A stretch of 64,000 nt of DNA from Eledone cirrhosa (taxonomy: Eukaryota), in the NCBI GenBank assembly GCA_964016885.1, contig OZ024742.1, positions 84,568,001 to 84,632,000 of the forward strand, read 5' to 3'. The position numbers were made by a program, and so were the translations under genes. Below are positions 2,482-55,558 of this stretch, piece after piece (the first letter of the stretch is position 1; each line of letters opens with the position of its first letter). The notes below the pieces were generated by a model, which was given only the letters and a program-made list of their open reading frames with translations, ran no database searches and was not told the DNA's origin.

Positions 2482-2544
<63 letters not shown>

Positions 2545-2635
2545 CGGAAGAAATGTGGTCAGGAACCAGGTGGACCATAACGCACCAAAGTACTCAACAC
2601 TTAGGGTAGTAGAGTGGGTAATAGGAACGAGTAGG

Positions 2636-2731
2636 ACCCCGGCGGCTGAGCTCAAACCGTTTCGACGGCTAATTCTGGACTAAATGAAAATTGTTATCCT
2701 GGTATTTGAATAGCCGAGCTTCTCAAGGGGT
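2636..2731 (-). ncRNA. Type I hammerhead, U3-A8 variant with a mutated cleavage triplet
   Basis: acccc TTGAGAA gctcggcta...tagccgtc GAAA cggt..gccg CC ggggt. Confidence 0.65.
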
Positions 2732-5045
2732 AATTCCATATATGGTCAAAGTGATTGTCACAGGGATTGGTCAAAAGTTTGTAGTTGAGACATAATAATT
2801 CTATGATGGCAATTTGTGGAGGGAAGGGGTAGCTAAACCTGCCAGTAGGAGAAAGAGGGAGAGGGTGCAGGAGACCCATTCATGCGTTGATAGTGCCGGC
2901 TACAGCTGGGCGTGAGGTCAAAGAAGATACTAGGGAGGGGGAGGGGAGGAAGTCGAAACAGTAAGTAGAACAATAAGGGGTAAATATATAGAAAAATACT
3001 GAGAGTGCTAAAAAGCAATTAAATGTAAAAAAAACAAAAAAAAAACAATTTCTGGTTACTACGACCTAAGTCTCTCACTATTGCTAGACTAAAGAAATAT
3101 ACTAGGTGGGACGGAATTAAAATGAGACCCTTTTAAGAGGTATAAGTAATAAACCGAGTATATCTTACGGTGACGGGTCAACAAGTGAGGGGCCAAAATA
3201 CTAAAGAAACTACCACGAAATAATAAAAGTTTCTACCCCAGGCACAAGGCCAGCAACCACCCAGTGCAAAAAAGTAAGCTAATACGAAATAATAATTCAG
3301 AGTCCCGAAAAATAATACTAATACTATCTCTAAGGGTGCCGCCACGATACAAAAGTTCTAGTGCAAGCTACATAAAAGTTCGTACGAAGTAAAAGTAAAA
3401 TTTGATACGGAAAATTAATTCAGAATCCCCCCCCCCCAAAAAAAAAATACTGATAAACGAGAAAATAAAGCAAAGATGCCACTAAGAAATATAGAAAGCC
3501 CGGAAAAGGGGCAGCGGTCGGATATGAGGGCAAGTATCCGGGGTCTAACACATCTGCTATAAAAAGCGGAGTCGGCCAAATCTATCATAGAATAGGCGAA
3601 GGGGGTGGGGGTACTGAGGCTACAATGGACCGAGGGTCTGCCTCGGGTGGGCGAGAAAAAGACGACGACAAAGAAAGAGAACTGGGGTGGAAGGACCAGG
3701 GAGGGATGGGGGAAGAAGGAAATATAGAGGAAGCGATAAAAAGATATAAAAGAAGAACTCACGTCTACCTTAGCAAGCAGGGGTTACCCATTACAAAATC
3801 GGCAAGTGGGGTGTTATAGCCCTAGTCTACCCCCCGGGTCATTATGGGATTTGAGGGCGAGGTAAGTCCTACGCAATCTGTGTTTACATGCAGTATCCAG
3901 TTCATCTTTCTTGTTTAGGAGTTGGTCCGTCGAAAACAGCATTTGTAAAGTTTCCTCCGAGCATAAATTGCACGGACGGCGTCCTCCCGTGTAAGATTTG
4001 GCTCTGGATAGTAATCTCCAAGTGAGATCATAGGTAATGTTGTTATCCTTGAGGTCCCATATGTGGCCCGAAAGTGTAGTGGCGTGACGCCGGGCCGGGT
4101 TTCGGAAGGTATGTCTGTGTTGGTATAGCCGGGTCTTGAAGTCACATGCGGTTAATCCTATATAAGCTTTGTTGGAGGTGTCCGTCCTCACGTTGCACTG
4201 GTAGATCACATTACGATCTCTGCATCTGTTGTCGAGGGGGCAAATGGATCCATCAGGACAGTTACACCTCCTGGTCGACTCTCCACTGCTATTTAGGTTA
4301 TTTCTTCCATAGGGGTTGAGTTTTTTGTTGTTGGAGGAGACGATGTTTTGTGCAAAGTTTGGTGTAGTGCTGTAAGAGAGTGGTGGTATTTCTGTTAATT
4401 ATGTTGTGGTAGCGGTGTTGTAGTGGGAAGTGTTTTTCAATGAGCCTAAAGAAGATTTTCCCGATAGGAGTTGTCACCTCGGCGTTGTGGGGAGGATTGA
4501 ACCATGTTACATTGCGTGAGCGGTGGTGTCGCCTGCTGGTTCCGCTAATGGGAGCTGGACAGTAGGATATTTCCTCCCGGAAACCACTCCGCTTGAGGGC
4601 CTGGTTGTAATAAGGCGCATGTTCATCGAATATCTGCTGACAAACAGGATATGCGGAGGGAGATGTTTTTAACCATGTTATTGGTGATGTTCCTAGGATG
4701 GTTTGATCGGCGGTGGATGTAATGCAGGTTGTCGTTAGGTTTCCTGTATGGGTAGTACAGGTCATTATCGAGGTCGAGGGTAACGTTCAGGAAGTATACT
4801 CGGGTCAGGGACGTTTGTAGGGTTATTTTAAATCCCCAGTCGCGGAAGAAGCTGATTAATTGTTTACGGACCCGATCTGTACTACTGGGGTTGTACCCTT
4901 TAAGAGTAAGGAGCCCATCATCACGGTACAATCCACCGCCGAATGCAGGAAACATATCGGAGAGTTTGGGTATTAGGAATAATCCTATAAGATCTGTGAT
5001 CTTTTGACCAATCCCTGTGACAATCACTTTGACCATTATGGAATT

Positions 5046-5141
5046 ACCCCTTGAGAAGCTCGGCTATTCAAATACCAGGATAAACATTTTCATTTAGTCC
5101 AGAATTAGCTGTCGAAACGGCTTGAGCTCAGCCGTCGGAGT
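5046..5141 (+). ncRNA. Type I hammerhead, U3-A8 variant with long stem II
   Basis: acccc TTGAGAA gctcggcta...tagctgtc GAAA cggc-ttgagctca-gccg TC ggagt. Confidence 0.7.
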
Positions 5142-5151
5142 CCTACTCGTT

Positions 5152-5196
<45 letters not shown>

Positions 5197-5464: not shown

Positions 5465-5467
<3 letters not shown>

Positions 5468-7525
5468 ACGATGGGGTCCAGTGACTCAGCGCAAGCAACT
5501 GGCCGCCCTGTTTACCGTTAGGAATCATAGCTCCGTAGGATAGAAAACCTTAACAAACATATACACAGGTTCTTTAAGTCATACGGCCTATCCGTAACTA
5601 TGGACCTCAACCACAAGGTTGTCAACTTCCTGGACGTGACCCTGGAGTTGAGTACGGGCTTATACAAGCCATACCATACGACTGGAGAGTGCCTCGCTTA
5701 TATTAACTATGCCTCCAACCACCCTAAGCAGATTCTCAACTCCATAGTCTATAGTATCGCACATAAAATCTCGAGGCCATCCGCCAATGAGGATATCTTC
5801 AACCAAGCGGCAGATTACTACAATAGAGCCTTGATAAGCCCCGGCTTTAACCAAGGAATTTCCTACATCCCTAACGCTAGCTCTAGAAACCACCCCCTCA
5901 TAAAATGAACGTTATAGTAAGCCATACCTATAACTGAGCACGCCGCGACCTCGTTGAAGTCGGATATAATAGAATAGATAATCGCACTAAAGTTCACAAC
6001 TCTGGGGACGGTGACCACTGTAGTTTACTCGAACTATTCCCCTACTACAAAACCAGCAAAGGCGACGGCCTACTACCAACGCCTTCCAACCAACATCTTC
6101 CTGTACATAAACATGGAAGAGGGAAGAAGAGTGCACCCGAGCATAAAGTGAAAGGGGCACCTAACGGGCTACAGCGCATTAACATACATAAGAGCGGTCA
6201 CCTAGATGGAACAATCCGTAGCAAAAGTACAAGTACATGTAATCGCCACCGTAATGTCCTATGGTCCCCCCCCCCACTCTCGGAGTGTGGCCTCCAACAT
6301 ACCCCGAATATTCGTCGAAGCCTTAGAGAAGAACTTCCCGCCCAAACATAGGTATAGAAAAATTCTTAATAGGAACAATATAAAAATATCCTTCTCTACT
6401 ACTCCTAACCTAGCAGACATCATAGGAACAACGATCCACAGTAAGATCACCAAGACACAGCACCTCGACGCAGACGCACCTACACCTGACAATAACTATA
6501 TCGGCCTTAACAACTCCATAGCAGTATCCAATAGTGCTTGCAACGGCCTCCGCAGACGCAACCACAATAACCGCGAAATGACTGGGGAACATGCAGGACA
6601 TGACGTGCGGAACAACAATCGCACCACCCCGCGTGCTGTGGGTTGTAATGGTGCTAACGACAGCTGCGGGAGCGTAGATAACAACGTAGGCAGCAACAAT
6701 GATAGCCTTATCGTGGGAAATAGATGGAACCGCGACAGAAATTGCAACTGCCGCGGGAGAGGACGCTGCTCCCTTAGAGGATACTGCTTGACTGATAGGG
6801 TTATATATAGATGCACTGTAACTAGCCACAATAGCGTTAAACATTATATAGGGGCTAACTCCGGCCCGTTCAAAATTAGGTTTCGAAAACAGCTCCACTC
6901 TTGCACAAATAAAAAACTAAGACACTGCACTTCGCTCGCGGACTATATCACATTACCAAAGGACTTAAACATCAGATTCTCCACGCACTGCGATATTGTC
7001 GGCAGGGCTGCATCATACAACTTCAAGAGGAAGTGCAATCTTTGCCTCATGGAGCTCTACCACATCATAACTGCACCCCACGAACTCATCAACAGCAGAG
7101 CTGAAACAGCGATAAGTTGTACTCATCGCTTAAAAATATCCTTCTAAAGATGGTTTAAGAATGAGGAGTGAAACAGTGCACCGGATCTCCCTGCAACACG
7201 TTTTAACACCCCGGCGGGCAGGCGCTGCAAAATAACACCCAGGAAACTAACCATGCATACCAGACCCATCCTCAAACGAGCCAGACAAACAGGTGCGGTT
7301 AACAAACGTCTCAAAATAAGCGTTGGTTACACGACCCTGTGCGTATCGACAATGGTAAAGTTGTAACCTCATCTTGTAACGGGTAAAATTTTGTCCGGGA
7401 AAGAGTGCCCTAACACCGGCCATAGTTCCCTCCCTTGACCTGCTGCAAAATGAAAACAAGCTATTTTTGCGAACAATGAAACTTGACGTGAATTTAACCC
7501 CCAAAACACTTTTGGTTATTTATGC
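5465..7525 (+). mobile_element. Degenerate PLE fragment (RT C-terminus, Asn-rich linker, GIY-YIG)
   Basis: [57 protein letters not shown]. Flanked by (TA)n. No HHR recognised. Confidence 0.85.
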
Positions 7526-7660
7526 CATATATATATATAATTTATATATATATATAATATATATATATATACTATATATATATATAGTATATATATATAT
7601 ATAATATATATATATATATGGTGGTAGAACACTATATATATATATATATATATAATATAT

Positions 7661-7735
<75 letters not shown>

Positions 7736-7840
7736 ATATATATATATATATATAATATATATATGTATAATATATATATATATATATATAATATATATAT
7801 ATTTATATATATAATATATATACTATATATATATATATAA

Positions 7841-8029
<189 letters not shown>

Positions 8030-8144
8030 GAAAAGTGTAATTTTCTACACAAAACGAAGGTTATAGAGAAAATTGAGGTTGGTAATGGCACATGGAATAT
8101 ATAAGAGACAGAATACTTTTTTGTGAAAAAACATATAATTTTAT

Positions 8145-8176
<32 letters not shown>

Positions 8177-8179
<3 letters not shown>

Positions 8180-8905
8180 GTAGAACACTGGAAGGTAATA
8201 TCCGTAGTGGTAGAGCACTCAGTCCATGGGAGGAGTTAGGTAGAAGTGGTTACACAACAGTTAGTTCACCATACCGAGAACAATTCTTTCACCTCAGCGG
8301 ATCATCAGCTCGTAATGGACATGGTTATACGGAACAGGAAGGACAATCGTACGAACGCGCATGCGTTGAAACGGTCACTTCACACAGGCAATACGTGTGA
8401 AGACAATACGTTTGAAGTGATTGTTTATGCGTGTAAGAGGTGTAAGGGAGATAACTGCGAAAGTCCGAAAAGTTTCTAGTTGATAAGAAAGTTAGGATGT
8501 TGTTGTAATTCAATCCAGAGCTTTGTAGCTACGTAAGAGGTGTTTCGATACGTGTGGACAACGTTTGAAGAATTCATTTCTCGTGTTTAGGCAATCGCTA
8601 TTGCATAATCTCTTTAGAATATTTATTCGTTCATCAATACACACTCCGCACGACGGGTTTCACCTTGCGTATGGCTTGGACTTAGTGAGGGCTGTCCATT
8701 GAATGGAGTAGTCTACACTTGAGTCTTTGAGGGACCATACGTGGCTAGCGAGTTTCGTTGATGAACGTTCTTACCGGTTACCTAAAGGTCGACTGGTCGT
8801 TCAGGAAACGTTCCTTAAATCGGCCCTCCGCCATACCCACATAGGATTTGACCTCCTGTGGTTGATTTGGTCGGTTGAAAGTGACCACAGCTTCGTAAAC
8901 CAGAG
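8177..8905 (-). mobile_element. PLE 3' fragment, family G: broken GIY-YIG, 3'UTR, HHR and tail
   Basis: Minus strand reads VYEAVVT..KSYVGMAEGRFKERF..CGVC..RCPH. Closely similar to 26087-26805. Confidence 0.85.
8275..8312 (-). ncRNA. Minimal type I hammerhead, family G
   Basis: cgag CTGATGA tccgctgaggt GAAA gaattg TT ctcg. Confidence 0.75.
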
Positions 8906-9061
8906 CTATTAACCATATTTAGGGTCGACTTGTCAATGTTGTGGCTCATTGGTAACTAGCTTATTATTCCTATGTGTCGAATTAATTTAATTTGATTATT
9001 TTAATAAACAAATTATATAAATATATATAAATATAAATATTATATAAATATATATATATAT

Positions 9062-9236: not shown

Positions 9237-9389
9237 TATATATATATAATATATATATAATATATATATATCTATATACATATGTAATATAAATATATAT
9301 ATATATCATATATATATATATATATATATAATATAATATATATATATATATATGAAAAAATCCTGGTAATATATATATATTTATATAAT

Positions 9390-12300
9390 CGATATAAAAC
9401 AAATGGAAACTACATTTATAAAACCATATTTATTTCATTATATATATTTCAGGGATATCATATTAAAAATATGGTATGCCCTCTTCAGATAAAATACCAT
9501 ATATAAACAGTTTTATAAATAAATTTGACATACCTTAGAATTTTACAACTTCCATTTAAAAAGTTGTTATGGTAGTGAAAATGTTAAGGACGGTTAGAAA
9601 GAAAGACGGAGAAAAAAGAAAAAGAAAAAAGAAAAAGAAGGAGAAAAGAAAAAGAAAGAGCGGAAGGTGAAAAAGATGAAGAAATGTATGTAAAGAGAAA
9701 ACCACCAATTGAGAGATTAATGAGGGAAGGGGTACTGTAATTATTTATTTATTTATTTATTTATTTAGTGTTAAGGATACGGGGAGAAATAAAAACAAAA
9801 ATAAATAAGGAGAGGTAGATCGAGTAATATCTATTATACGAGGTGGGAGAGATAGGGGAGGGGTGATATACAGGAGATAGAGTTAAAACAGCCGATACAA
9901 GTATAGAGGGGGGGAGGAGAGGAGATATACTTAGAAACAAAAATGATAGTTTTAAAATATTATGTTTCATCAGTCTATCAATTCCTATGAATTATAATGT
10001 AAATATCAATATTCATGAATGAGACACATATCAATAATGTGTGAAAAAATAATGACTATATGTTTAGTTTAAAAATTCATAGGTTTATAATCAAAATCTG
10101 AGATGAAACTTCAAAAAATACTGAAATACATAAGTATATATGTATTTTCATGAAAAAAGAGAAAAGAGAAAGAAAAAGAGAAGGTTATCTCAAATTGACA
10201 TTATAGACACATGTGAGTTTACATGATCAGCTCTGTAAATTTTTATTTCACATGAAAATCTTCATTGCGTTAAAAAAGAATTTACCATACATATATGTGT
10301 ATATACATATATATATACATAAAATATACATTATTAATAATAATAATATTCTTGCCCTTTCTTACATGATTATCGTTCAAGCATAGAATAGAAGAGATAT
10401 CAATATATTAAAATATTAAAAACGCCAAGAATATTTTCCTCCCCAGAATATCTAGGGCCGTAAAAACACAGTGTGCCCAGCATATCAATCAATCCTTCCA
10501 ATTTATTTGACAATATTGCCAAGTTTATTAGAAGTAATCAGAATCAAAAGCAAACAAAACCAAAATTATTCACCAACCTTATTTAGCAGAAATTATTCAA
10601 AAAAAAAAAAAAACCTTAGGATACCCGGTTGTTCTACAGATGCTCTTATATTTATTATAGAAGTTTATCTAGCTTAAACATTTTATTCAATAGATTTGGA
10701 TCATCACTATTTTAAGGTAGTTTAATTACATTATTAATTATATACTCATGAAGAAGTTTTAAAGAATTGAAGGAATCAAAAGATTTATCGCCAAGTTTTC
10801 TAGAATAATTAAAAGTCTTAAGTAAATATACTACATTTTTAATTTATATTTATATTTAAAAGTTGAGTTCAATCTATGTCTGCAGCAACTGAATAAATTG
10901 GTCCGTAAATTAAGGGAATTTTTAGATTTTAGTATAAAGAATATCTTCTCCGCGCAGAGGTCACATGTCTCAGAGGAGGAGTTAAAAGGAATCCCTCTTG
11001 AGACTATATTCCAAACCGTCGAATATCCAACGTTATCATGTTTAAGTTGCCAGAGTAAGCCTGATAGTGATGTTGAGGATTTTTTGTTTGGATCCGTGAA
11101 AGAATTCTTGTGATTATTATAGCGAAGTTTAAATTCAGTCGAGGTGGAACCAACATAATTAAAAGAATTTAAGTCAGTTTTAACATTACAGTTGTATATT
11201 ATATTTTTAACTAAGCAATTGTTATTTAACGGGCATTTAGATCTATCTCTACAGTTACAGTTGTTTACTTGAATATTGTTTATGCTATCATCGGTATTTT
11301 GGCTAGGTTTTAGATTCCTATTATTTATTCTATTAATATTTTGTGCTAAATTTTTGGTGGACGAGTAGGTTAATTTTATAGTATGTCTATTGAAAATTGA
11401 GTGATACTTATGTGTTCTGGGGAATCGTTTATCAAGAGCATTAAAAAATAGTTTAGCGATGTGGGTTTTAATTTTTAGTGAGAAGGGGGGGGGGGGGCAA
11501 ACCAAATTATGTTTCTAGTTCTATTTCTTTTCTGGTTTTTGGAATTATTGTAATTCTTTCTATTATAGTTGTTAAAGTTGTTACCGTAATTAAAATTGTT
11601 GTTATTTTGGTTAGTTTGTCTATTATTATCGATGTACATAATTTTATCACTATATCCTGCTCTAGCTAACGCTTCATTGTAATAGTGGGCTTTTTGGTTG
11701 AAAATATTTTTATTAGATGAGATTCTAGAGATACGTTTTTGAACAGAGTCACTATAGTATTTTTAACAGATCTGGGGTGGTTGGAGTTAAAGTTGACATA
11801 ATTCAAGTTTTCATTTAACTTGTGAAATGGATAGTGAAGACATGTGTTGAGATTTAATGTTACATCTAGGAAATTGACTATTCTATGGTTATTCTCAATT
11901 TCTATTTTTAGATTAAGGTAATTAATCTGAAAGAACTAAGGAAAAAGTACAAGGTAGCAGATAAGGCTGAACTTGAGAAAATGAACGTTGAGGCATCTGG
12001 TATAATGCATGAGTTGGAAATTGAGAACAAAACACAACCTTTCTTGCCCAGGAAACCCAAGATCAATATGAAAGATCACAAAAGAAATTTCGAAAACGAC
12101 TTGCCAATCAGATTGATTGCACCATCAAAATCTGACCTGGGTAAACTTAGCAAAAACATTCTAGACAGGGTGATACAGCAAATTAAGAACTTGAATTATT
12201 TACCTAACTTAAGCTTGTGGAAGGGAACTGGAGAGGTGATTGAGTGGTTTAAAGAAATTAAATATAACAATAATAATAAATTTATTCAACTAGATATTGC

Positions 12301-14232
12301 TAACTACTATTCATCTATTACCCTAACCTACTAAATAAGGCACTAAATTATGCATTCAAACATACAGACGTAACTAGCAATGAAATGCACATTATACTAT
12401 CGGCAAGAAAAACATTGATGGAATTTAATAACCAACTATGGACTAGGGCAGATAGAGATAGCAATTTTGACATTACTATGGGATCATCTGACTCAGCTCA
12501 GATAACAGACCTTGTGGGCCTATTTATAATTAATTCGCTACACAGGAAAATACCCGTGCTACCGGTGGATTATATCGAGATGACATGCTTTTACTTATTG
12601 AAAATAATAACTCTGAACTAAATAGAAAAAGGAAACAAATTATACAATTTTTTAATTACCTTAATCTAAAAATAGAAATTCAGAATAACCATAGAATAGT
12701 CAATTTCGTAGATGTAACATTAAATCTCAACACATGTCTTCACTATCCATTTCACAAGTTAAATGAAAACTTGAATTATGTCAACTTTAACTCCAACCAC
12801 CCCAGATCTGTTAAAAATACTATAGTGACTCTGTTCAAAAACTTATCTCTAGAATCTCATCTAATAAAAATATTTTCGACCAAAAAGCCCACTATTACAA
12901 TGAAGCGTTAGCTAGAGCAGGATATAGTGATAAAATTATGTACATCGATAATAATAGACAAACTAACCAAAATAACAACAATTTTAATTACGGTAACAAC
13001 TTTAACAACTATAATAGAAAGAATTACAATAATTCCAAAAACCAGATAAGAAATAGAACTAGAAACATAATTTGGTTTGCCCCCCCCCCCCCTTCTCACT
13101 AAACATTTAAAACCCACATCGCTAAACTATTTTTTAATGCTCTTGACAAACGATTCCCTAGAACACATAAGTATCACTCAATTTTCAATAGACATTCTAT
13201 AAAATTAACCTACTCGTCCACCAAAAATTTAGCACAAAATATTAATAGAATAAATAATAGGAATCTAAAACCTAGCCAAAATACCGATGATAGCATAAAC
13301 AATATTCAAGTAAACAACTGTAACTGTAGAGATAGATCTAAATGCCCGTTAAATAACAATTGCTTAGTTAAAAATATAATATACAACTGTAATGTTAAAA
13401 CTGACTTAAATTCTTTTAATTATGTTGGTTCCACCTCGACTGAATTTAAACTTCGCTATAATAATCACAAGAATTCTTTCACGGATCCAAACAAAAAATC
13501 CTCAACATCACTATCAGGCTTACTCTGGCAACTTAAACATGATAACGTTGGATATTCGACGGTTTGGAATATAGTCTCAAGAGGGATTCCTTTTAACTCC
13601 TCCTCTGAGACATGTGACCTCTGCGCGGAGAAGATATTCTTTATACTAAAATCTAAAAATTCCCTTAATTTACGGACCAATTTATTCAGTTGCTGCAGAC
13701 ATAGATTGAACTCAACTTTTAAATATAAATATAAATTTAAAATGTAGTAAATTTACTTAAGACTTTTAATTATTCTAGAAAACTTGGCGATAAATCTTTT
13801 GATTCCTTCAATTCTTTAAAACTTCTTCATGAGTATATAATTAATAATGTAATTAAACTACCTTAAAATAGTGATGATCCAAATCTATTGAATAACATTT
13901 TTAAGCTAGATAAACTTCTATAATAAATATAAGAGCATCTGTAGAACAACCGGGTATCCTAAGGTTTTTTTTTTTTGAATAATTTCTGCTAAATAAGGTT
14001 GGTGAATAATTTTGGTTTTGTTTGCTTTTGATTCTGATTACTTCTAATAAACTTGGTAATATTGTCAAATAAATTGGAAGGATTGATTGATATGCTGGGT
14101 ACACTGTGTTTTATAAATATAGTTTCCATTTGTTTTATATCGTAAAATACTCCAAAACCTGTTGAGTGCTTTTATATCAGTTATAAAATATTTACTCGTT
14201 GTAACCCAACAATTTTAAATAAAACTTTTGCA
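9390..14232. mobile_element. Fold-back PLE, family A: minus arm 9390-11925 and plus arm 11926-14232
   Basis: Plus arm carries frameshifted RT ([33 protein letters not shown]) and GIY-YIG ending near 13747. Segment 10461-11925 is the near-identical reverse complement of about 12652-14112. Confidence 0.93.
9431..9496 (-). ncRNA. Type I hammerhead, family A
   Basis: tattttat CTGAAGA gggcatacc...gatatccct GAAA tatata TA atgaaata. Confidence 0.85.
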
Positions 14233-32956: not shown

Positions 32957-33632
32957 CGTATACCTTCCTGCCAGATGGTTGAACGTCTGAAAGTATATAC
33001 TTTCCAGATGCTGACGATAAGCTTGAAATTTGTAAGCTTGAAACTAGTACATCGTTCCTGTGTCAGTCTTGAACAAAAAGGTGACGTGGTTGCCTAAACA
33101 CTGTACGGCGTAATTCGGGCTGTTTGTTTGTTTACAAACAAACAAACCGAGCATTATAATAAATGTTTGGTAAACCGATACGTGCATATATATATGTGTG
33201 CATGTATGTATATATATCCATACTACTGTACGTCTGTATACATATATGTATGTACGTATGCATACATGCATACTTACATTTAAGTAAGTGCCGTACTAAG
33301 AGTGAGAAATGAAATTTCGTTTCATTCTATTCCATTTATCGTTTTCGGTGCGCCCGGCGGACTGAACTCACTCGATATGCAAATTAGGCGGCTCAGCCGT
33401 TAATATGCATAAGGAAAGTATATACTTTCAGACATTCAACCATCTGGCAGGAAGGTATACGATGCTGACGATAGCTAATAAGCTTGAAACTAGTACATCG
33501 TTCCTGTGTCAGTCTTGAACAAAAAGGTGACGTGGTTGCCTAAACACTGTACGGTGTAATTCGGGCTGTTTGTTTGTTTACAAACAAACAACCGAGCATT
33601 ATAATAAATGTTCGGTAAACCGATACGTGCAT
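32957..33632 (+). repeat. 446-bp retrozyme-like unit bounded by two hammerheads, with a short inverted leader
   Basis: HHRs at 33007-33053 and 33460-33500 (cgatg CTGACGA tagctaataagctt GAAA ctag TA catcg). Segment 32957-33005 is an inverted copy of 33413-33461. No ORF. Confidence 0.88.
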
Positions 33633-34559
33633 TATTGAAAGTCTCTGGATTTCGCAAAATACATATTTATTTTTTATTGAAGAAGGTAAGATATTTTCCC
33701 GCAAAAATTTGATTGCACTGTTTTCTTTCCACTTATGTATTTTTTGAAAATATTATTTATTCACTATAAAAATTAAATGATAACATTCTATATTTTTAGA
33801 CTCAGTCCGCCACTGCCTCGAACTGTTCCGGTATTCCTTCCTCCTGTTCGTGGTGGTGCATATGCTGCAGGTGTCGCCTGGTGGGTAGTGCACACCATGT
33901 GGAAACATGGGTGCGTGGCTGGTTGTCTGTGACCAGGGCACGTGGCTGAACGGTGGGTGAGCAGAGAAGAGAAACTAGAATCATGGGGAAGGAGGCAGCG
34001 TATCTCAACTACACCAGATCCAAAGGCAACATCAACAAAATAAAAAAAAGGGAGGGAGTGTAGGGAAATATAATAGGATAGACGAAAGTGTACTCTACTA
34101 CCTCCTCAATCTTTTTTCGGGCCTAAATGATGTATCGTAATTCTCGTATTGTCTAGGGATGATCGTACTTCGTTGATAATAATATGAAGCGACGGCTGAA
34201 ATATTTCACAGATTTGTTTCATAATACACCGGGAATCTGTTTAGATGTAATCAACGGTCACGACCCGACAGAAATAAAATAAAGCAATGCTGAATTTACC
34301 TACACTACTTGAAGTAGAATCATTAGTTATGAGAATATGTGCAAGGAAGTTTCCTAGCCTACTTGGGATTCCAATTATATTTTGAGATATGGGGACGTTA
34401 TTACATCTGCTAGTGCGAATTTGGAAAGTAAGATATATATATATATCCAAGGACTGGTTAGATACAATCATAATACCCTTATACAAGGGCAAATGAGTGA
34501 AAGCAACATGCAACGACCATTGTGATATGGGTGCGCTTGAACTCCTGGTAATTTTGTTG

Positions 34560-35855: not shown

Positions 35856-35943
35856 TAGTCAGTTCTTAGATATGCCAGCTCTGTGTTTATGGTTTTGATG
35901 GTATTAGAGCCTTGGAAAATATATATATATATATATATATATA

Positions 35944-36628
35944 AACAGAAAAAATGAAACGAAATTTCATTTCCCAATCTTAGTACGGCTGTTACTTAAA
36001 TATAAGTATGTACACGTACATACATATATGTATACAGACGTACAGTAGTATGTATATATATATATACATACATGCACACATATATATATATATGTACGTA
36101 TGGATTCACCGAACATTTATTATAATGCTCGGTGTGTTTGTAAACAAACATCCCGTATTAAGCCGTAGTGTCCAGCAACCATCGTTGCTCGTTTGTTCAA
36201 CACTGACAAAGGAACGCTGTACTAGTTTCAAGCTTATTAGCTATCGGCAGCAACGTATACCTTCCTGCCAGATTGTTGAACGTATATACTTACCTTATGC
36301 ATATTAACGGCTGAGAAGCCTAATTTGCATATCGAGTGGGTTAATCGGGCGGGTGCACCGAAAACGATAAACGGAAAAAATGAAACGAAATTTCATTTCC
36401 CACTCTTAGTACGGCTGTTACGTAAATATAAGTATGTATACGGACATACATATATGTATACAGACACTACGGCTTAATACGGGATGTTTGTTTACAAACA
36501 CACCGAGCATCATAATAAATGTTCGGTGAATCTATACGTACATATATATATGTGTGCATGTATGTATATATATATACATACTACTGTACGTCTGTATACA
36601 TATAAGTATGTACGTGTACATACTTATA
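35944..36628 (-). repeat. Second insertion of the 446-bp family: unit, partial tandem copy and inverted arm, with mutated HHR core
   Basis: Homologous to 33007-33460. Core reads CTGCCGA at 36215-36255. Segment 36466-36628 is inverted relative to about 36001-36167. Confidence 0.8.
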
Positions 36629-36633
36629 TATAA

Positions 36634-38189: not shown

Positions 38190-38240
38190 AACTGTATTTG
38201 ATTGTGTTGTATTAGTTTTCCTGTTATCTAGTTTAACTGT

Positions 38241-38285
<45 letters not shown>

Positions 38286-38288
<3 letters not shown>

Positions 38289-38706
38289 GGAGGTGAGTTT
38301 TATTGTAGTACAATAAAGCAATGCAGATATCGGATAAGAAGCACTCTACAGTTTGTAGGACTGGAGTATACATAATATAAGATCAAAAGATGGTTAAAGG
38401 AGTTCCATGTATTTTATTATGCGCATTTCAAAAACAAACATCATCATGCAATAATATTTGTGTTTTCATCAGATAAAACAGGAGAACATGATATGAAGGC
38501 TAAAAAACACTTGTGGATAGTGCAGTTTTAAATCAACATATCATATATGTTGATTTAAAACTGCACTATCCACAAGTGTTTTTTAGCCTTTATATCATGT
38601 TCTCCTGTTTTATCTGATGAAAACACAAATATTATTGCATGATGATGTTTGTTTTTGAAATGCGCATAATAAAATACATGGAACTCCTTTAACCATCTTT
38701 TGATCT

Positions 38707-38714
<8 letters not shown>
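38286..38714. mobile_element. Short fold-back of the 47.9 kb PLE family with two intact hammerheads
   Basis: Near-perfect palindrome 38372-38714 centred on 38543. HHR gttttat CTGATGA aaacacaaat..gtttgttttt GAAA tgcgca TA ataaaat at 38607-38675 (+) and 38411-38479 (-). Tail at 38286-38371. Confidence 0.92.
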
Positions 38715-38784
<70 letters not shown>

Positions 38785-39144
38785 TTGTGTGTGTATATAC
38801 ACATGCTTCTATAATTTTCTATGTATTTTTTATATATTATTTTTCTTACATATTAATTTTTATATAATCTTTTCCTATATTTTTTCTTATGTATATTTTT
38901 CCTTTATTTTTCCACCCTCACTTCCAACTTTTAACAGATTTCAAATATCATTTCATATTTTCCATTCATAACATCTCTGTCTGATGAACGATCTAGACGT
39001 ATATTAATATTATTTAGGGTCCTGAAACATTTGGTAATGGAACAGTTATATATTGTGTTCATTTTCTAATTAAATAGCTCTGTTCTATACATAGAGCTCT
39101 CTTTTTTCCTTTACCTTTTCTTCGCAATTACCAAACACACACAC

Positions 39145-42144: not shown

Positions 42145-42549
<405 letters not shown>

Positions 42550-47834: not shown

Positions 47835-47882
<48 letters not shown>

Positions 47883-49089
47883 GGAGGTGAGTTTTATTGT
47901 AGTACAATAAAGCAATGCAGATATCGGATAAGAAGCACTCTACAGTTTGTAGGACTGGAGTATACATAATATAAGATCAAAAGATGGTTAAAGGAGTTCC
48001 ATGTATTTTATTATGCGCATTTCAAAAACAAACATCATCATGCAATAATATTTGTGTTTTCATCACATAAAACAGGAGAACATGATATGAAGGCTAAAAA
48101 ACACTTGTGGATAGTGCAGTTTTAAATCAACATATGAAAAGTGGTTTTGGATTGATGTGTGATATTGGGAAAAATATTTTATTTAGAGAGGGGGGGGTGG
48201 AAAGGATGAAAAGGGGAGGAGATGAGAGGGAGAGATGGGTGATAGAGAGAAAGAGATAGTTTTTATAACTGAGAGGAGATATATTGTTTTACATAGAGAG
48301 GTTGAAAACCGTTGGAAGATAATGTATAAATTAAAAAAAAATTTGAAAATTAACGAAAGGAGGATATGTGCGAGGAAAAAGTATTTTATTTAGGGAGGGG
48401 TGGTGGAAAGGATGAAAAAAAGGGGGAGGAGATGAGAGTGAAGGTGGAGAGGGAGAGATGGGTGATAGAGAGAAAGAGATAGTTTTTATAACTGAGAGAA
48501 AGATATATTGTTTTACATAGAGAGGTTGAGAAACCGTTGGAAGATAATGTATAAATTAAAGGAATTTGAAAATTAACGAAGGGAATTTATGTATGAAGAT
48601 AGAGAGAAGAAATAATAATTGTGGATGAATATTCTAACGTCAAAAAAGGGTATGTTGTGGCAATTTCAAAATTAACGAAGAGAAAAATTATTAAGGTTTG
48701 TGTGTAGAAGGATTTGAGAAAAATAATGTGAAGTTAAAGTTTGTATATTGGAGGAATTGATAATATATGCGAATAGAGTTAATATGTATTAAGAATGAGT
48801 TCGTTGATGGGGAGAAAAAAATAATAAATTAAGGAAGAAATTGAGATTAAAAAGATTTATGATAGAGAGAAAAAAATAATGATTGCGGATGAATATTCTA
48901 ACGTCAAAAAACAGATGTATATGTTATGAATGATTTTACAAGGTGACGATAGAATGAGGGTAATGAGTAAACAAGTATTATAGAGTGTATAAAGCCCTTT
49001 AAAGTATGGTAGGAAGATGGGTATATTTTAAAGAGGTGTATGTATATGTGCCTTTGAGAAAAGATTCTAAATTGATAAAGAATTGAATA

Positions 49090-51492
49090 TTAACTGTATA
49101 CTTTGTGAAAAGTTCTATGGAATTTATGCAGGCAGATAGAAAACAAATCTGTACGTCTATTTATTATAGAATCTAGGTTAGAGATAATGGTAAATTTTTC
49201 ATTTAGGCAGAGATTACAGATTTTAGATAGAGAGCTGTTCAAGTATGAGGATGCAGAAGAAACCTTCTTCCAAAAGATGGTATATTTAATGTTTTTGTCT
49301 TTTAAGGACCATATGAGTTCTGAGAGAGCAGTGTTGGTTCTTTTAAGTTTGTATTTGAAAGATGAATGATGATTATAGAGACGAGCTTTAAAAGAGGTGG
49401 AAGTGGAGCCAAAATAGGTGAAGGAATTGGTGCTAGTTATAATTTTACATTCATAAATTAAGTTTTTATCGAGACAATGGTTGTTGAGAGGTCATTTATT
49501 TTTAATGCGGCAGTTGCAATTAGAGAGATTATTAATGAGTGACCTAGTGTTATCTATAGAAGGAATTGGATTGGAGAAGTTGTTTGCGATAGGAATAATA
49601 GGAATAATAGTTTCTTGATTTAGAGTTGGATTATGAACATTTAGCGAAGTTGTGTTTGGCGTTGTATTTGGGTTTACAGAAGTTAGCCTAGGGTTTACAA
49701 TGACGTCGGGAGTACTATTACTGTTATTATGAAATTCAATGTTGGAAGGAAGAGATTTAGTATTTAGTATTTTATTGTTGTGTTTAGAGATGATGTTGGA
49801 AATATTGGAGGATGTGGAATAAGAAAATGTGATGGTGTGTTTGTTAAATATTTTACTATAGATATGTGAGGGAGGGAAGCATTTATTTAAGGCACTAAAA
49901 AATAATTTAGGAATATTGTTATTAATAGAGATGGAGAAAGGAGCATTATACCAGATTATGTTTTTGTATCTAGGTCTTTTATTAAAATTATTGGAATGAT
50001 CATGATTAATTATTCTACTGTAAGTTTTTCTAGAATTTGTTTCTTTACTATATTTGATTTTATCTGGATAGCCGGCTTTAGAAAGTGCGTTATTATAGTA
50101 ATTGGCGTTAGCATCAAAGATGTTTTTATTAGAGGATATGTTAGATATTCTTTTTCCAATATTACTAACTATAGCATTCTTGATATTGGTAGGATGGTTA
50201 GATTTAAAGTTAACATAATTTAGGTTCTCATTGTTTTTATGGTAAGGGTAATATAGGCCAGTGTCAAGATTAAGAGATACATCCAAGAAATTAGCTAGTT
50301 TGATACTATTATCAAATTCAATTTTTAGGTTATGTTGGTTAAAGAGATTACGTATATTGTTCTTAATAATATTAAGGTTAACTATATTGCAATTTAGGAT
50401 AGTAAAGAGTCCATCGTCACGATAAATTCCACCGCGAAGTTGAGGAATTTCCCGACTCAAAGAGTTCAAAATGAAGATACCAATTAAATCAGTCAATTGG
50501 GATGAATCGGATGCTCCCATTGTGATGTCGAAGTTGTTAGAGGTATCGGCTCTGGTTCAATATTCGTTGTTGAACTCTAGGATGGTTTTACGTGCAGTGA
50601 GGATGATGTGAAGTTCATCTGTGGTGATGTCAGAATATTTAAGTGCGAAAGATAGAGCATTATTGAGAAGTGAAGGCGAAATGGAGGAATAGTAGCTGGC
50701 AATATCAAATTGAATACATTTTAGTTTGTTTTTATTATCCAATTTGTTGAACCAGCCAATCACCTCAGAAGTGCCAAACCATAAATTTAGGTTCAAAGAA
50801 GAGCAATTAGAACTAACCTGTGGGATAATTCTATCCAAGATGGCTTTACTAACAACCCCCAGATCAGATTTAGAGGGGGCAATTAATCTAACAGGTAGTT
50901 CAGTGCGGAAATTGTTTTTGTGATCCTTGAGATTTATCCTCGGAGTTCTTGGGAGGAATGGTTCGGTCTTTTTTTCAATGCCAAGTTTTGACATAATCTC
51001 AGAGGCTTCAAGGTTTATGTATTCTAAATTTTCATGGTTGGTTTTACGATACTTTTTCCTAAGTTCCTTTAGGATAAGGTTGTTATAATTATCCTTGGAA
51101 ATACCATATAAGTTATTGGTTTTGTCAGAGTGGACTAAAACATTTTTTGAGGAATTTAGGTTAGAGATTGTGTTCTTGAGATTTACAAGATGCTCTTGTC
51201 CTTTGTAAGGGTATCTCTTGAATTTAAGATTTTTTATTATTTTAGTTAATTCTTCCTCGAATTGTACTAGATTTTTGTTGGAAGGAGGATTTCGTCTAGA
51301 ATTAAAAAGATGATCGAGGAAGTTATGTTCTTTGGTATGGAAGTTCCCTTATAGACGCTGGTCATAGAAATAGGCTGTCCATCTAAGTCTTCTTACGAAG
51401 GAGTCAGTTTTTTCAATAAGAAGTTTGGTGAATTCAGATTTACCAGGTATAGGAATGTCTTTAGTTGAATTGGTTATGTTGTAATAATCCAT
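49090..51492 (-). pseudogene. PLE RT + GIY-YIG polyprotein, 800 codons, three in-frame stops, no frameshift
   Basis: MDYYNITNSTKDIPIP..FVRRLRW..SDKTNNLY..FDIASYYSSI..FDITMGASDSSQLTDLIG..IYRDDGL..SNHP..NCNCR..LIYEC..YFG..CNLC..CLH. Stops at 51349 (TAA), 50557 (TGA) and 49492 (TGA). Confidence 0.92.
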
Positions 51493-51692
51493 GTTGTAGA
51501 AGAAGAGGTGAAGGACCATCAAAAGGTATCCAATATGAGAGTAAGCGCTCAACCGTTAAGGAGCAAGTTAATGTAGGAGGTGAGTTTTATTGTAGTACAA
51601 TAAAGCAATGCAGATATCGGATAAGAAGCACTCTACAGTTTGTAGGACTGGAGTATACATAATATAAGATCAAAAGATGGTTAAAGGAGTTC

Positions 51693-52471
51693 CACATATC
51701 TATAGTAAAATATTTAACAAACACACCATCAAATTTTCTTATTCCACATCCTCCAATATTTCCAACATCATCTCTAAACACAACAATAAAATACTAAATA
51801 CTAAATTTCTTCCTTCCAACATTGAATTTCATAATAACAGTAATAGTACTCCCGGCGTCATTGTAAACCCTAGGCTAACTTCTGTAAACCCAAATACAAC
51901 GTCAAACACAACTTCGCTAAATGTTCATAATCCAACTCTAAATCAAGAAACTATTATTCCTATTATTCCTATCGCAAACAACTTCTCCAATCCAATTCCT
52001 TCTATAGATAACACTAGGTCACTCATTAATAATCTCTCTAATTGCAACTGCCGCATTAAAAATAAATGTCCTCTCAACAACCATTGTCTCGATAAAAACT
52101 TAATTTATGAATGTAAAATTATAACTAGCACCAATTCCTTCACCTATTTTGGCTCCACTTCCACCTCTTTTAAAGCTCGTCTCTATAATCATCATTCATC
52201 TTTCAAATACAAACTTAAAAGAACCAACACTGCTCTCTCAGAACTCATATGGTCCTTAAAAGACAAAAACATTAAATATACCATCTTTTGGAAGAAGGTT
52301 TCTTCTGCATCCTCATACTTGAACAGCTCTCTATCTAAAATCTGTAATCTCTGCCTAAATGAAAAATTTACCATTATCTCTAACCTAGATTCTATAATAA
52401 ATAGACGTACAGATTTGTTTTCTATCTGCCTGCATAAATTCCATAGAACTTTTCACAAAGTATACAGTTAA
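51693..52471 (+). pseudogene. Open GIY-YIG half of the ORF on the inverted arm
   Basis: ORF track 51677-52471; near-identical to 49090-49868, with TGT at the 49492 stop position. Confidence 0.85.
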
Positions 52472-53573
52472 TATTCAATTCTTTATCAATTTAGAATCTT
52501 TTCTCAAAGGCACATATACATACACCTCTTTAAAATATACCCATCTTCCTACCATACTTTAAAGGGCTTTATACACTCTATAATACTTGTTTACTCATTA
52601 CCCTCATTCTATCTTCACCTTGTAAAATCATTCATAACATATACATCTGTTTTTTGACGTTAGAATATTCATCCGCAATCATTATTTTTTTCTCTCTATT
52701 ATAAATCTTTTTAATCTCAATTTCTTCCTTAATTTATTATTTTTTTCTCCCCATCAACGAACTCATTCTTAATACATATTAACTCTATTCGCATATATTA
52801 TCAATTCCTCCAATATACAAACTTTAACTTCACATTATTTTTCTCAAATCCTTCTACACACAAACCTTAATAATTTTTCTCTTCGTTAATTTTGAAATTG
52901 CCACAACATACCCTTTTTTGACGTTAGAATATTCATCCACAATTATTATTTCTTCTCTCTATCTTCATACATAAATTCCCTTCGTTAATTTTCAAATTCC
53001 TTTAATTTATACATTATCTTCCAACGGTTTCTCAACCTCTCTATGTAAAACAATATATCTTTCTCTCAGTTATAAAAACTATCTCTTCTCTCTATCACCC
53101 ATCTCTCCCTCTCATCTCCTCCCCCTTTTTTTCATCCTTTCCACCCCCCCTCCCTAAATAAAATACTTTTTCCTCGCACATATCCTCCTTTCGTTAATTT
53201 TCAAATTTTTTTTAATTTATACATTATCTTCCAACGATTTTCAACCTCTCTATGTAAAACAATATATCTCCTCTCAGTTATAAAAACTATCTCTTTCTCT
53301 CTATCACCCATCTCTCCCTCTCATCTCCTCCCCTTTTTCATCCTTTCCACCCCCCCCTCTCTAAATAAAATATTTTTCCCAATATCACACATCAATCCAA
53401 AACCACTTTTCATATGTTGATTTAAAACTGCACTATCCACAAGTGTATTTTAGCCTTCATATCATGTTCTCCTGTTTTATGTGATGAAAACACAAATATT
53501 ATTGCATGATGATGTTTGTTTTTGAAATGCGCATAATAAAATACATGGAACTCCTTTAACCATCTTTTGATCT

Positions 53574-53635
<62 letters not shown>

Positions 53636-53637
<2 letters not shown>

Positions 53638-55558
53638 AGATATTAATAAATGGAAACTATATTTATAAAACCATATTTATTTTAGTATATATATTTCAAG
53701 GGCGACCAAGCAATCTTGGTGCGCTTTCATCAGATAAAATACAAGATTTGTTTTATAAATAATGAAATCAACCTTAACGGTCGGAAAATTCGCTGGGTAG
53801 TGGAAACTTAGGGGTAATTCAAAATGATGTGTGAATATGCAAATGAATGTATGAAACATTGAAAAAGACAACCGTTTATTTAAATTACGCTAGTGAAAGA
53901 TAGGAAAGAAAGACAAGAAAGAGAGAGAAAAAATAGAGAGGGAAAAAATTACTGCTATGAGAGAGATAGAGAGAAGAAAGAAATTTCTCGGAGGATGAAC
54001 TCAAGTAACGTAAATACGTCTTAAGTTTTTATTAATGTTAGGTATCTTTACTAATTATCATAGGCAGACTGGTACTCATTTCTACAGCTGAGTAAACTGG
54101 AGCAACGTGAAATAAAGTGTCTTGCTCAAGGAAACAACACATCACCCGGTCCGAGAATTGAACTCACAACCTTTCGATTGCAAGCCCAATGCTCTAACCA
54201 CTAAGCCATGCGCCTTCACATAATACGATATAATATCTATATTTTTTTCTATATACTTATAATTAGTAAATATAATAATATGATATAATATTTACTAATT
54301 ATAAGTATATAGAAAAAATATAGATTTAAAGATATATTGAAAAATAAATTGAAAATAAATAGATATACAGTAGAAAATAGTAGAATCAATATATAGAAAA
54401 ATATAGATAGAAGAATAGATATATGAGTGGATAAATGGGTATATCATGTTATAGATAATTGTTTTAATAAGTTATGAGGGATACTGGTTTATATTTAGTG
54501 TAAGTAATAAAATTAACTGAGTTAATAAGATTATTTATATGTTTTTAATGTTTTAAATTGTGAAGATACTGAAAATCCCAGGTTTGTTTATTAATTAGCT
54601 AGTATGAGACCATTTTGACGAAGATATATATGTTGAAAGATATATTTAGCCAGAATTAGTTAATTATTGGTTATAACTCTAATATTAAATAATTACAAAA
54701 TATTAAAAGTATTAAAAAATATTAAAAAATATTAAAAAATATTTAAAAATATTAAAAAATATAAAAAAATATTAAAATATTTAAAGTTCTGGAAAAAAAT
54801 TCTGGAAAGAAATTCTGGAAAAAGTTTCTGGAAAAATTTTTTGGAACAAATTTAAAAGAAAAAACACTTAAAATAATTTTCGAAAAATTTAAAAATCTAA
54901 GATACTCAAAAACCCTTTTAAAAAATAAAAATACTTAAAAGGTATTTAAACTATTTAAAATGTTTAAAGATATTTAGAAATATTAAAACATTTTAAATAA
55001 TCTTTAAAAAGTAATTTTTTTAAGAAAGAAGTAATTATATTAGAAATCTAACAATAATTAGTAAAGATACCTAACATTAATAAAAACTTAAGACGTATTT
55101 ACGTGACTTGAGTTCATCCTCCGCTAAATTTCTTTCTTCTCTCTATCTCTCTCATAACAGTAATTTTTTCCCTCTCGATTTTTTTCTCTCTCTTTCTTGT
55201 CTTTTACTAGCGTAATTAAAATAATCGGTTGTCTTTTTCAATTTTTCATACATTCATTTGCATATTTACACATCATTTTGAATTACCCCTAATAAGTTTC
55301 CACTATCCAGCACATTTTCCAACCGTTAAGGTTGATTTCCATGGGTATGTCATTATTTATAAAACAAATCTTGTATTTTATCTGATGAAAGCTTTGTCGG
55401 CCTTGAAATATATATAATAAAATAAATATGGTTTTATAAATATAGTTTCCATTTATTAATATCTTGGAATATTTACTCCAGTAAACTGTTGAGTGCTCTA
55501 TATCAGTTATAAACATTTATATTTATCGGAATTACAACAAATTAAATATAACTTCTAC
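53636..55558. mobile_element. Non-coding fold-back PLE derivative with two hammerheads (53678-53741 minus, 55374-55424 plus)
   Basis: Arms 53636-54058 and about 55052-55466 are diverged reverse complements. Both carry tattttat CTGATGA aag...ctt GAAA tatata TA. Tail extends to 55558. Confidence 0.85.
54065..54218 (-). mobile_element. tRNA-derived SINE 5' half with a CORE-like block
   Basis: Reverse complement reads ggcgcaTGGCTTAGTGGttagagca..GAGTTCAATTC..ccttgagcaagacactt. Confidence 0.8.

Follow-up and report, generated by a model that had tools for sequence, protein, structure and literature searches.

A stretch of 64,000 nucleotides from the genome of Eledone cirrhosa (assembly GCA_964016885.1, contig OZ024742.1, positions 84,568,001 to 84,632,000 of the forward strand; this whole stretch is referred to as the window) contains a two-armed insertion between 47.9 and 53.6 kb, the main copy of which carries an open reading frame (ORF) for a predicted reverse transcriptase (RT) with a GIY-YIG endonuclease at its C-terminus. 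The insertion is best read as a copy that was inserted recently, is not functional and belongs to a new family within the Hydra clade of Penelope-like elements; a cycle of insertion into (TA)n arrays can be proposed for it (probability about 0.8). It represents one more family of a clade that was described in 2021 and whose bias towards (TA)n has already been published (PMC8557442). The novelty lies in two bulged hairpins that mark the insertion ends and are positioned 4-8 nt beyond each end. This rule was exposed because one copy amid many related insertions has kept its whole 5' untranslated region (UTR). The origin of the tails and inverted arms of Penelope-like elements has been named an open problem (PMC8557442), which so far has been answered just partly, for the Poseidon element PAc from Anolis carolinensis (Frangieh et al. 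2024, PMC11167929).

Structure of the insertion

The anatomy of the insertion was derived from a comparison of the window with itself. The following features were assigned, including a short derivative of the same family at 38.3 kb:

38286-38714, no strand: short derivative of this family (429 bp) with two arms forming a palindrome; it lies in (TA)n and has the same long and short ends
47838-47879, no strand: (TA)21 array on the left side, the target, in which a neighbouring element with a hammerhead also ends
47880-48011, minus strand: 3' tail, which reaches its 'long' end 132 nt beyond the point of hammerhead cleavage, followed by 2 nt of AT microhomology
47934-47961, minus strand: hairpin 1, tail copy, 4 nt 3' of the short-end position
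48004-48074, minus strand: minimal type I hammerhead with palindromic zero-loop stem III, C3G at 48066, cleavage position 48012
48075-49089, minus strand: long 3' UTR (about 1 kb) with an internal duplication of about 205 bp (48168-48369 and 48374-48592)
49090-51492, minus strand: RT-endonuclease ORF of Hydra-clade type, 800 codons plus terminal TAA, with stops at codons 48, 312 and 667
49126-49518, minus strand: CxCx5C linker and GIY-YIG endonuclease with CxxC and CxH and without CCHH (from alignment and fold search)
49519-49755, minus strand: Asn/Pro/Thr-rich expansion of about 70 residues in the thumb-to-nuclease linker, predicted to be disordered (from alignment and model)
50053-51135, minus strand: DKT motif, RT core (D263, YRDD 357-360) and thumb (from alignment and model)
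51493-51694, minus strand: 5' UTR of 202 nt with both hairpins, starting 11 nt past the hammerhead cleavage position
51544-51564, minus strand: hairpin 2, with G-C for A-U at its base; it begins 6 nt 3' of where the long end falls, and 52 nt separate it from the ATG
51627-51654, minus strand: hairpin 1, 5' UTR copy
51693-53581, plus strand: inverted 5'-truncated arm that starts at codon 543 and reaches the 'short' end at 46 nt beyond the cleavage site
53473-53543, plus strand: hammerhead of the inverted arm, with the same C3G (53481)
53582-53635, no strand: (TA)n array on the right side, common to this insertion and the next element (53636-55558)

The unit has a length of about 3.7-3.8 kb. Positions 47878-48001 repeat the initial 124 nt of the 5' UTR without any difference, forming a pseudo-long terminal repeat (pLTR) overlap, and the inverted arm, in which the nuclease frame is uninterrupted, is joined head-to-head to the main copy by a microhomology of 2 nt. 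The start of the full copy 11 nt past the cleavage position fits either a ribozyme-processed template or a stop of reverse transcription at the stem. Inverted 5'-truncated arms and one-sided tails are known for Penelope-like elements (PMC8557442). The cis elements listed in an initial annotation of the ORF, namely hammerhead, tail and 5' UTR, were all found, but both of the element's own hammerheads carry the core mutation C3G.

Assignment to the Hydra clade

The ORF runs from 51492 to 49090 with zero frameshifts over 2403 nt, and its start methionine is in register with the starts of full-length homologues. Thus, the single 801-codon frame with three point stops of the initial annotation was correct at the coordinates given there. 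Of 7998 candidates scored in a homology search, 15 proteins had E<=1e-5, with identities of 31-38% and a lowest E of 1e-124, and a profile of these 15 matches 4705 cluster representatives at E<=1e-30. The 44 full-length homologues referred to below are the subset with 640-950 residues of the homologous proteins collected. The catalytic residues of the RT (D263, D359 and D360, with YRDD at 357-360) and of the nuclease (Y680, Y693, G695, R704, H708, E765 and N778) are present. An AlphaFold model of the full-length protein (mean pLDDT 77.9, residues 580-658 disordered) matches the folds of retron, telomerase (TERT) and group II RTs. The nuclease was modelled from the C-terminal 146 residues of the uninterrupted inverted arm (pLDDT 88.9), and structure comparison gave I-TevI as best match (Z 8.7, root mean square deviation 2.4, 89 aligned residues), which together with T4 EndoII, the GIY-YIG domain of UvrC and PD-T4-3 forms the top four. 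These models support the prediction of a protein with an RT and, at the C-terminus, a GIY-YIG nuclease.

According to Craig et al. 2021 (PMC8557442), the Hydra clade is diagnosed by a C-terminal GIY-YIG nuclease, the motifs RWK and DKT, a CxCX5C linker, and the absence of CCHH; further defining characters are CxxC before the catalytic E, CxH after the catalytic N, hammerheads near the 3' end, and insertion into (TA)n, which is listed for 26 of 27 families in the Hydra table. The element resembles this clade in nearly all of these respects. It has a single ORF with the nuclease at the C-terminus (codons 659-789), DKG is replaced by DKT (S-D123-K-T), and the linker contains C659, C661 and codon 667, which is a stop in the main copy and Cys in the arm. 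CxxC precedes the catalytic E (C759, C762, E765; CxxC-x2-E) and CxH follows the catalytic N (N778, C787, H789; N-x8-CxH). CCHH is absent, with one Cys between the GIY and YIG tyrosines, where 39 homologues have none, four have one and one has two (n=44). A hammerhead lies near the 3' end, the insertion sits in (TA)n, and an inverted 5'-truncated copy at the 5' end is also known from Penelope-13_HM (PMC8557442). The nearest published relative by eye is Hydra-1_Obim, which has the exact stretch SDKTNNLY in common (PMC8557442). In general, the single ORF for RT and GIY-YIG, the pLTR/inverted structure and the tail at one end are those of endonuclease-positive Penelope-like elements.

The combination of CCHH and DKG typical of Penelope/Poseidon, Neptune and Nematis is absent, as are the N-terminal nuclease and the IFD of Naiad/Chlamys. 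The RT3-RT4 spacing aligns to homologues without an insert and appears the same by eye against Fig. S7, and the first 228 residues contain no Cys and hence no N-terminal CxC domain. The linker reads CxCx5C-P-x4-C, which differs from the CX2-5CxxC finger of Neptune, Nematis and Naiad. The element shares with Naiad and Neptune a (TA)n bias, a cysteine-rich linker beside the nuclease, and tandem and inverted structures; in contrast, both of these have CCHH and CX2-5CxxC, and Naiads have an N-terminal nuclease, an IFD and no canonical hammerhead.

Several observations weigh against this placement or leave it less sharp. The third residue of the RWK motif is a variant, R37 and W38 being followed by T, where the 36 homologues aligned at this position have K (19), R (11) or other residues (6). 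Pfam reports no domain in the ORF protein, apart from one sub-threshold match, nor in any of the 16 alignment members, and Foldseek gave no match at E<=0.001 for the nuclease model, with T4 EndoII, Hpy188I and I-TevI as top rows. A nuclease tree with unnamed rows is weakly resolved; five of the six rows from the window cluster at 87/71 with unsettled bootstrap, which suggests that these families may have radiated locally. Taken together, the diagnostic motifs and the by-eye comparison with Fig. S7 make it very probable that the element belongs to the Hydra clade.

Within this clade, it appears as a distinct new family, set apart by eye from the six File S7 consensus sequences. The best database matches to the protein are only 31-38% identical, the unit of about 3.7-3.8 kb exceeds the length of generally <3 kb, and RWT and a tail of about 85 nt contrast with RWK and 30-40 bp in the published families (PMC8557442). 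The longer unit results from the expansion of the linker by about 70 residues and the 3' UTR of about 1 kb; the thumb-to-nuclease linker has 87 residues versus 13-50 in 41 of 43 homologues. The accessible text of a paper on Octopus vulgaris repeats names Penelope-like elements without mention of Hydra (PMC13282606). The base composition of the window and its load of repeats would suit an invertebrate genome rich in AT. The initial annotation had proposed a candidate for a microsatellite-directed insertion enzyme. The RT, the C-terminal GIY-YIG nuclease and the association with (TA)n agree with this, but the protein carries the diagnostic motifs of a known clade, which was missing from the reference clades named there.

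Insertion ends and bulged hairpins

In the 22 hammerhead-bearing arms of the window, the distance from the cleavage site to (TA)n is bimodal, with nine arms at 43-61 nt and nine at 126-153 nt. A long end is combined with a short end in each of six closely similar inverted pairs (2.5-5.15, 9.39-14.23, 20.5-21.06, 38.3, 47.9-53.6 and 57.2-57.55 kb) and also in a seventh pair at 53.6-55.6 kb, the arms of which are 86% identical; a degenerate palindrome at 24.1-24.3 kb was left unscored.

The tails of otherwise dissimilar families have in common a hairpin with the pattern RCTC-stem-loop-stem-2 nt bulge-GAGY-RCT. The exact pattern has seven matches (0.01 expected by chance), and a strict structural pattern with an upper stem of at least two pairs gave 11 rows compared to a mean of 0.155 and a maximum of 2 in shuffles. 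A relaxed pattern (18 rows versus 0-9) was no better than shuffles. Base pairs were counted by script from anchored coordinates, as MAFFT gave no in-register alignment. The lower stem pairs in 36 of 36 cells from nine distinct instances, partly by construction, and the unconstrained upper stem pairs in 24 of 27 cells, where shuffling of columns gave 17.7 (P 0.00065) and sliding gave 7-10. Clean hairpins can also be seen by eye in the File S7 consensus sequences of Hydra-2_Amil (one), Hydra-2_Ajap (one) and Hydra-1_Ajap (two, in the 5' UTR), and imperfect ones in Hydra-1_Crog (two) and Hydra-1_Obim (one); none is apparent by eye in Hydra-1_Amil, the consensus of which stops about 40 nt after the cleavage site. 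The upper stems of the published consensus sequences differ in sequence and still pair, which by eye amounts to compensatory changes. A 7-mer search across the supplement of PMC8557442 yielded mostly chance matches in Naiad and Chlamys sequences and was not used.

In all eight arms with a reference tail, the short end lies 4, 4, 4, 7, 5, 8, 5 and 7 nt 5' of hairpin 1, and the distance of the same ends from the hammerhead ranges from +20 to +56. These eight are the short arms with a related long tail; three other short arms, at 35.8, 47.8 and 24.2 kb, lacked a suitable reference and were left out. At the long end of the family described here, hairpin 2 lies 6 nt 3', within the sequence beyond the long end that this element alone has kept among the insertions of the window. 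The hairpins probably position two internal RT starts and would thereby define the Penelope 'tail'.

A role of the hairpin as start-site signal for reverse transcription is held to be about as probable as its opposite. The rule for the long end can be checked directly in a single family, and four of the 22 arms are outliers (+8, +242 and two without TA). In one other family, two ends (8177 and 26087) do not precede the hairpin-2-like stretch found in the 57.3 kb copy but are located within it, at a depth of about 10 nt. On their own the hairpins are weak (-1 to -8 kcal/mol), with flanks of 15 nt the pairing probability of the lower stem is <0.3 in six of nine instances, and hairpin 2 in its context is not the minimum-energy fold. 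In addition, the shuffle control for covariation ignores relatedness, and the hairpin pattern was derived from the same sequences. All these points count against the hairpin as a docking signal.

Two other explanations of the ends have to be considered, both of which are doubtful to the same degree. The motif might act as DNA, being recognized by the GIY-YIG nuclease in cDNA or duplex and cut 4-8 nt away, so that the short end is produced by cleavage. Craig et al. attribute the tail to nuclease resolution of an intermediate (PMC8557442), and the nuclease of D. virilis needed the tail sequence for recognition (Frangieh et al., PMC11167929). Palindromes with a zero- or 3-nt spacer, at 20527-21064 and 38286-38714, fit fold-back copying followed by trimming, and primary sequence (RCTC, GAGYRCT) is conserved besides pairing. 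On the other hand, compensatory changes and pairs that allow for G-U are in keeping with a single-stranded fold, the long end, which has to be a priming site, likewise has a hairpin copy beyond it, and both ends of PAc are RT starts in vitro (PMC11167929).

Alternatively, the ends might result from chance pairing of AU-rich RNA with a nicked (TA)n primer, while the hairpins serve another function such as promoter, translation or packaging. The short end of this family falls in TATATTAT, the long end has 2 nt of AT homology, and a 310-bp hammerhead array (see below) ends at an internal (AT)4. Furthermore, hairpin 2 lies 26-52 nt before the ATG here and, by eye, in published 5' UTRs. However, in most other arms the homology at the short end amounts to merely 0-3 nt, and the tails are rich in other AU stretches, yet the gap to the hairpin is kept at 4-8 nt, whereas the gap to the hammerhead varies by 36 nt.

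With the hairpins as docking sites, the following cycle can be proposed. A tandem source locus would be transcribed into an RNA comprising 5' UTR, ORF, 3' UTR and hammerhead and extending into the next 5' UTR, as suggested by the observed pLTR overlap of 124 nt. The RT-GIY-YIG protein would nick a (TA)n array, in which both strands are equivalent; the TA flanks are observed, and the nicking preference is deduced from the clade and from PAc biochemistry. The RT would then start inside the RNA at 46 or 132-134 nt past the hammerhead cleavage position, each start lying 4-8 nt 5' of a hairpin copy that probably binds and positions the enzyme. Either one strand is primed per site or one cDNA is copied back, which would lead to the two head-to-head arms with a microhomology joint that are observed; one long and one short end differ by about 85 nt, and this difference is the 'tail'. 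Cleavage by the 3' hammerhead would be dispensable, both arms carrying C3G.

This scheme resembles that of PAc, for which nicking of AT-rich DNA and two internal RT starts that define the tail have been reported (PMC11167929), and by analogy a similar mode of priming may apply here. PAc differs in that it belongs to another clade with CCHH and DKG and prefers ATT, whereas the Hydra clade sits in (TA)n arrays. PAc starts inside an AC-rich stem loop within the ORF, while here both ends are in the 5' UTR, each 5' of its own hairpin (PMC11167929). Term look-ups in PMC8557442, PMC11167929 and bioRxiv 10.64898/2026.07.22.740005 met no stem loop other than this AC-rich one. No description of twin hairpins was found in the accessible parts of these three sources and of PMC7229834; subscription papers and Repbase notes may hold one. 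There is an even chance that the hairpin is a structured RNA signal which has not been described before, is conserved between corals, sea cucumbers and this genome, occurs twice in the pLTR/5' UTR, and docks the RT so that priming on (TA)n begins 4-8 nt upstream. If this is true, the spacing of the two hairpins sets the tail length and explains the long and the short end of inverted insertions, and a hairpin of about 25 nt could suffice as the minimal cis signal by which an RNA becomes a template for (TA)n insertion. It would then offer a compact means of directing RNA-templated insertion to TA repeats, which are abundant and non-coding, and the question could be tested directly with short RNAs.

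Hammerhead ribozymes

A structural scan of the window detected 19 minimal type I hammerhead motifs, compared to 0-1 in each of 20 shuffles. All of them have a zero-loop stem III, mostly a perfect palindrome, and 17 have C3; the two motifs with G3 are those in both arms of this element, which read GTGATGA (48066, minus strand; 53481, plus strand). The motifs of the 38.3 kb derivative, with C3 at 38614 (plus) and 38472 (minus), read CTGATGA. The canonical hammerhead core near the 3' end is thus predicted to be intact in the family and mutated in this copy. The intact version noted at 38607 by the initial annotation corresponds to the motif at 38614 and is accompanied by the second one in the other arm. 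Hammerheads with a palindromic weak stem III are thought to act as dimers (PMC4209133), and the intact motif at 38.6 kb co-folds into such a dimer in RNA folding; the 310-bp array (see below), with one hammerhead per unit, is comparable as well. In contrast to this dimer type, the present element is protein-coding and its own two hammerheads are core mutants. C3G favours a misfold (-18.4 versus -13.6 kcal/mol). Rfam gave no hammerhead at gathering score in the whole window or at E<=10 in 38200-38800, and microRNA-type Rfam matches at 38.4-38.6 kb are below gathering scores and reflect the palindrome.

Both arms share C3G, yet they differ at 11 of 1893 bases and by four indels, and therefore the template probably already carried C3G, so that the template RNA probably contained a dead ribozyme. 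Local gene conversion between the arms could also have produced the shared C3G, which would weaken this conclusion. In PAc, C3G abolishes hammerhead cleavage and leaves in vitro insertion unaffected (PMC11167929). In this respect the two elements are alike, and the shared C3G lends genomic support to the in vitro finding that insertion can proceed without cleavage by the hammerhead. Together with the surplus of stops described below, it suggests that the source was an already decaying copy mobilised in trans.

An insertion with motifs at 2641 (minus) and 5136 (plus) is a second case of a ribozyme variant common to both arms, in this instance a hammerhead with an atypical core and with a stem III that is long and palindromic. 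In several families stem III itself is (AT)4 (20867, 29475, 9488, 55382, 35850 and others), and cleavage would give a 5' product ending in an AU repeat complementary to (TA)n. None of the arms examined ends at the hammerhead cleavage site.

Condition of the copy

The three stops are located at codon 48 (TAA, 51351-51349), codon 312 (TGA, 50559-50557) and codon 667 (TGA, 49494-49492). The initial annotation had proposed Trp at codon 312 after NNQLWTRAD of the nearest relative in the window (family A) and Cys at codon 667 after the inverted arm. Both repairs are confirmed, since Trp is present in 44 of 44 full-length homologues, the arm has TGT, and 43 of 44 homologues have Cys. Codon 48 falls in a gappy, variable region of the alignment; no template exists within the window, no compensating frameshift around it was seen in three frames, and a search for shorter homologues returned no close relative (32 matches, 30-52% over parts) and hence none for this codon. 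A recoding of the stops, by selenocysteine as in some Naiads or by a variant code, was rejected as next to impossible, since only the position of the UGA at codon 667 at a conserved Cys and the existence of Naiad selenoproteins (PMC8557442) speak for it, while the arm has TGT at codon 667, the UGA of codon 312 stands at an invariant Trp, codon 48 is UAA, and no single code covers all three.

The damage is not limited to these stops. The copy departs from its homologues at 12 of 103 conserved sites, which places it at rank 41 of 45; these missense departures were overlooked when only three point lesions were counted. The departures at positions 205, 269, 314 and 682 are common to other families of the window and were judged to be lineage traits, on the basis of sequence comparison. 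In contrast, Thr555 is a post-insertion lesion of the main copy, because the arm retains the conserved Lys. C259, S331, K510, A517 and N525 differ from the homologues and from the nearest window family, with Pro517 being present in all aligned homologues; one copy alone cannot separate lesions from family traits at these sites. The arm and the main copy are 99.4% identical at aligned bases, with 11 substitutions in 1893 aligned bases and four indels, and all five coding differences are non-synonymous. At the resulting divergence of 0.29% per arm, three stops in the whole ORF are improbable (P 0.001-0.003), and the same applies to the two stops in its unduplicated part (P 0.007-0.015). Three neutral stops imply about 78 substitutions (95% range 16-227). 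As the stops exceed the expectation from divergence, hidden damage beyond them is likely.

It is unlikely that the copy descends directly from an active master from which it differs solely at the three stops. The lack of any frameshift in 2403 nt, the complete set of catalytic residues, the 99.4% identity of the arms, a tail that differs from the 38.3 kb copy at only one of 256 nt, and the four departures that are lineage traits are in favour of such a descent. It is opposed by the Thr555 lesion revealed by the arm, by the five residues deviating from homologues and nearest window family, by the number of substitutions implied by three neutral stops, and by the purely non-synonymous coding differences between the arms.

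Accordingly, the claim that the element is repairable with three fixes is not established: templates are available for codons 312 and 667, but not for codon 48, conserved residues are altered, both hammerheads carry C3G, and intact homologues exist. All 20 key residues checked are retained by 29 of the 44 full-length homologues, which are therefore better starting points for an enzyme; compared with these intact relatives, this copy is the worse candidate.

The (TA)n arrays as probable target

Both members of the family, at 47.9-53.6 kb and at 38.3 kb, have (TA)n at both ends. In the window, (TA)n lies within 160 nt of 19 of the 22 hammerhead-bearing arms, which are not all independent, compared to 15.6% of random positions. 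Copies that are 5'-truncated adjoin (TA)n at their 5' junction as well (5465, 15858, 28001), and single arrays are common to neighbouring elements. From this it is deduced that the array is the pre-existing target and no synthesised tail. A telomerase-like addition of the flanks by the RT is very unlikely: the RTs of Penelope-like elements are sister to telomerase (PMC8557442), the fold search matched TERT and arrays of the window reach hundreds of units, but 5'-truncated copies have (TA)n at their 5' junction within coding or UTR sequence, and single arrays are shared by neighbours.

Other elements in the window

The nearest relative, family A, is located at 9389-14231 (about 60% RT identity) and is a two-armed insertion in which the ORF is frameshifted. 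In the right arm, the 3' UTR breaks off at about 14108-14112 and the sequence resumes 15 nt beyond the cleavage position, so that the ribozyme is skipped. At least five decayed Hydra-type families with the same cysteine motifs are likewise tied to (TA)n (2544-5153, 5465-7527, 7697-8906, 15858-17300 and 25636-27541).

The region 20527-21064 contains a perfect 440-bp palindrome without spacer, with two intact hammerheads and one short and one long end, and can be classified as a non-autonomous Penelope derivative resembling miniature inverted-repeat transposable elements. An array at 61533-62883 on the plus strand consists of 4.4 tandem copies of a 310-bp unit that are 99% identical, four of which each contain one intact minimal hammerhead; it ends in (TA)n 129 nt past the last cleavage site, lacks the conserved hairpin, and is a retrozyme-like array of the non-long terminal repeat (non-LTR) type. 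Another hammerhead-bearing family, in which no coding part was seen (32930-33640, 35940-36630 and 42230-42545), has long ends at 126-136 nt; its tail folds strongly (z -4.0) but lacks the bulged hairpin in its exact form. Repeats of 140 bp at 18003-18430 and 62990-63400 contain a hammerhead-like stretch with the core CAGAAGA in all copies seen.

An interrupted RT of the non-LTR type at 21279-23188 on the minus strand (Pfam RVT_1, E 1e-11 and 4.5e-7) adjoins (TA)n and is unrelated to the Hydra-clade ORF. The element at 53.6-55.6 kb contains a short insertion at 54060-54215, which presumably resembles a CORE-type short interspersed nuclear element.

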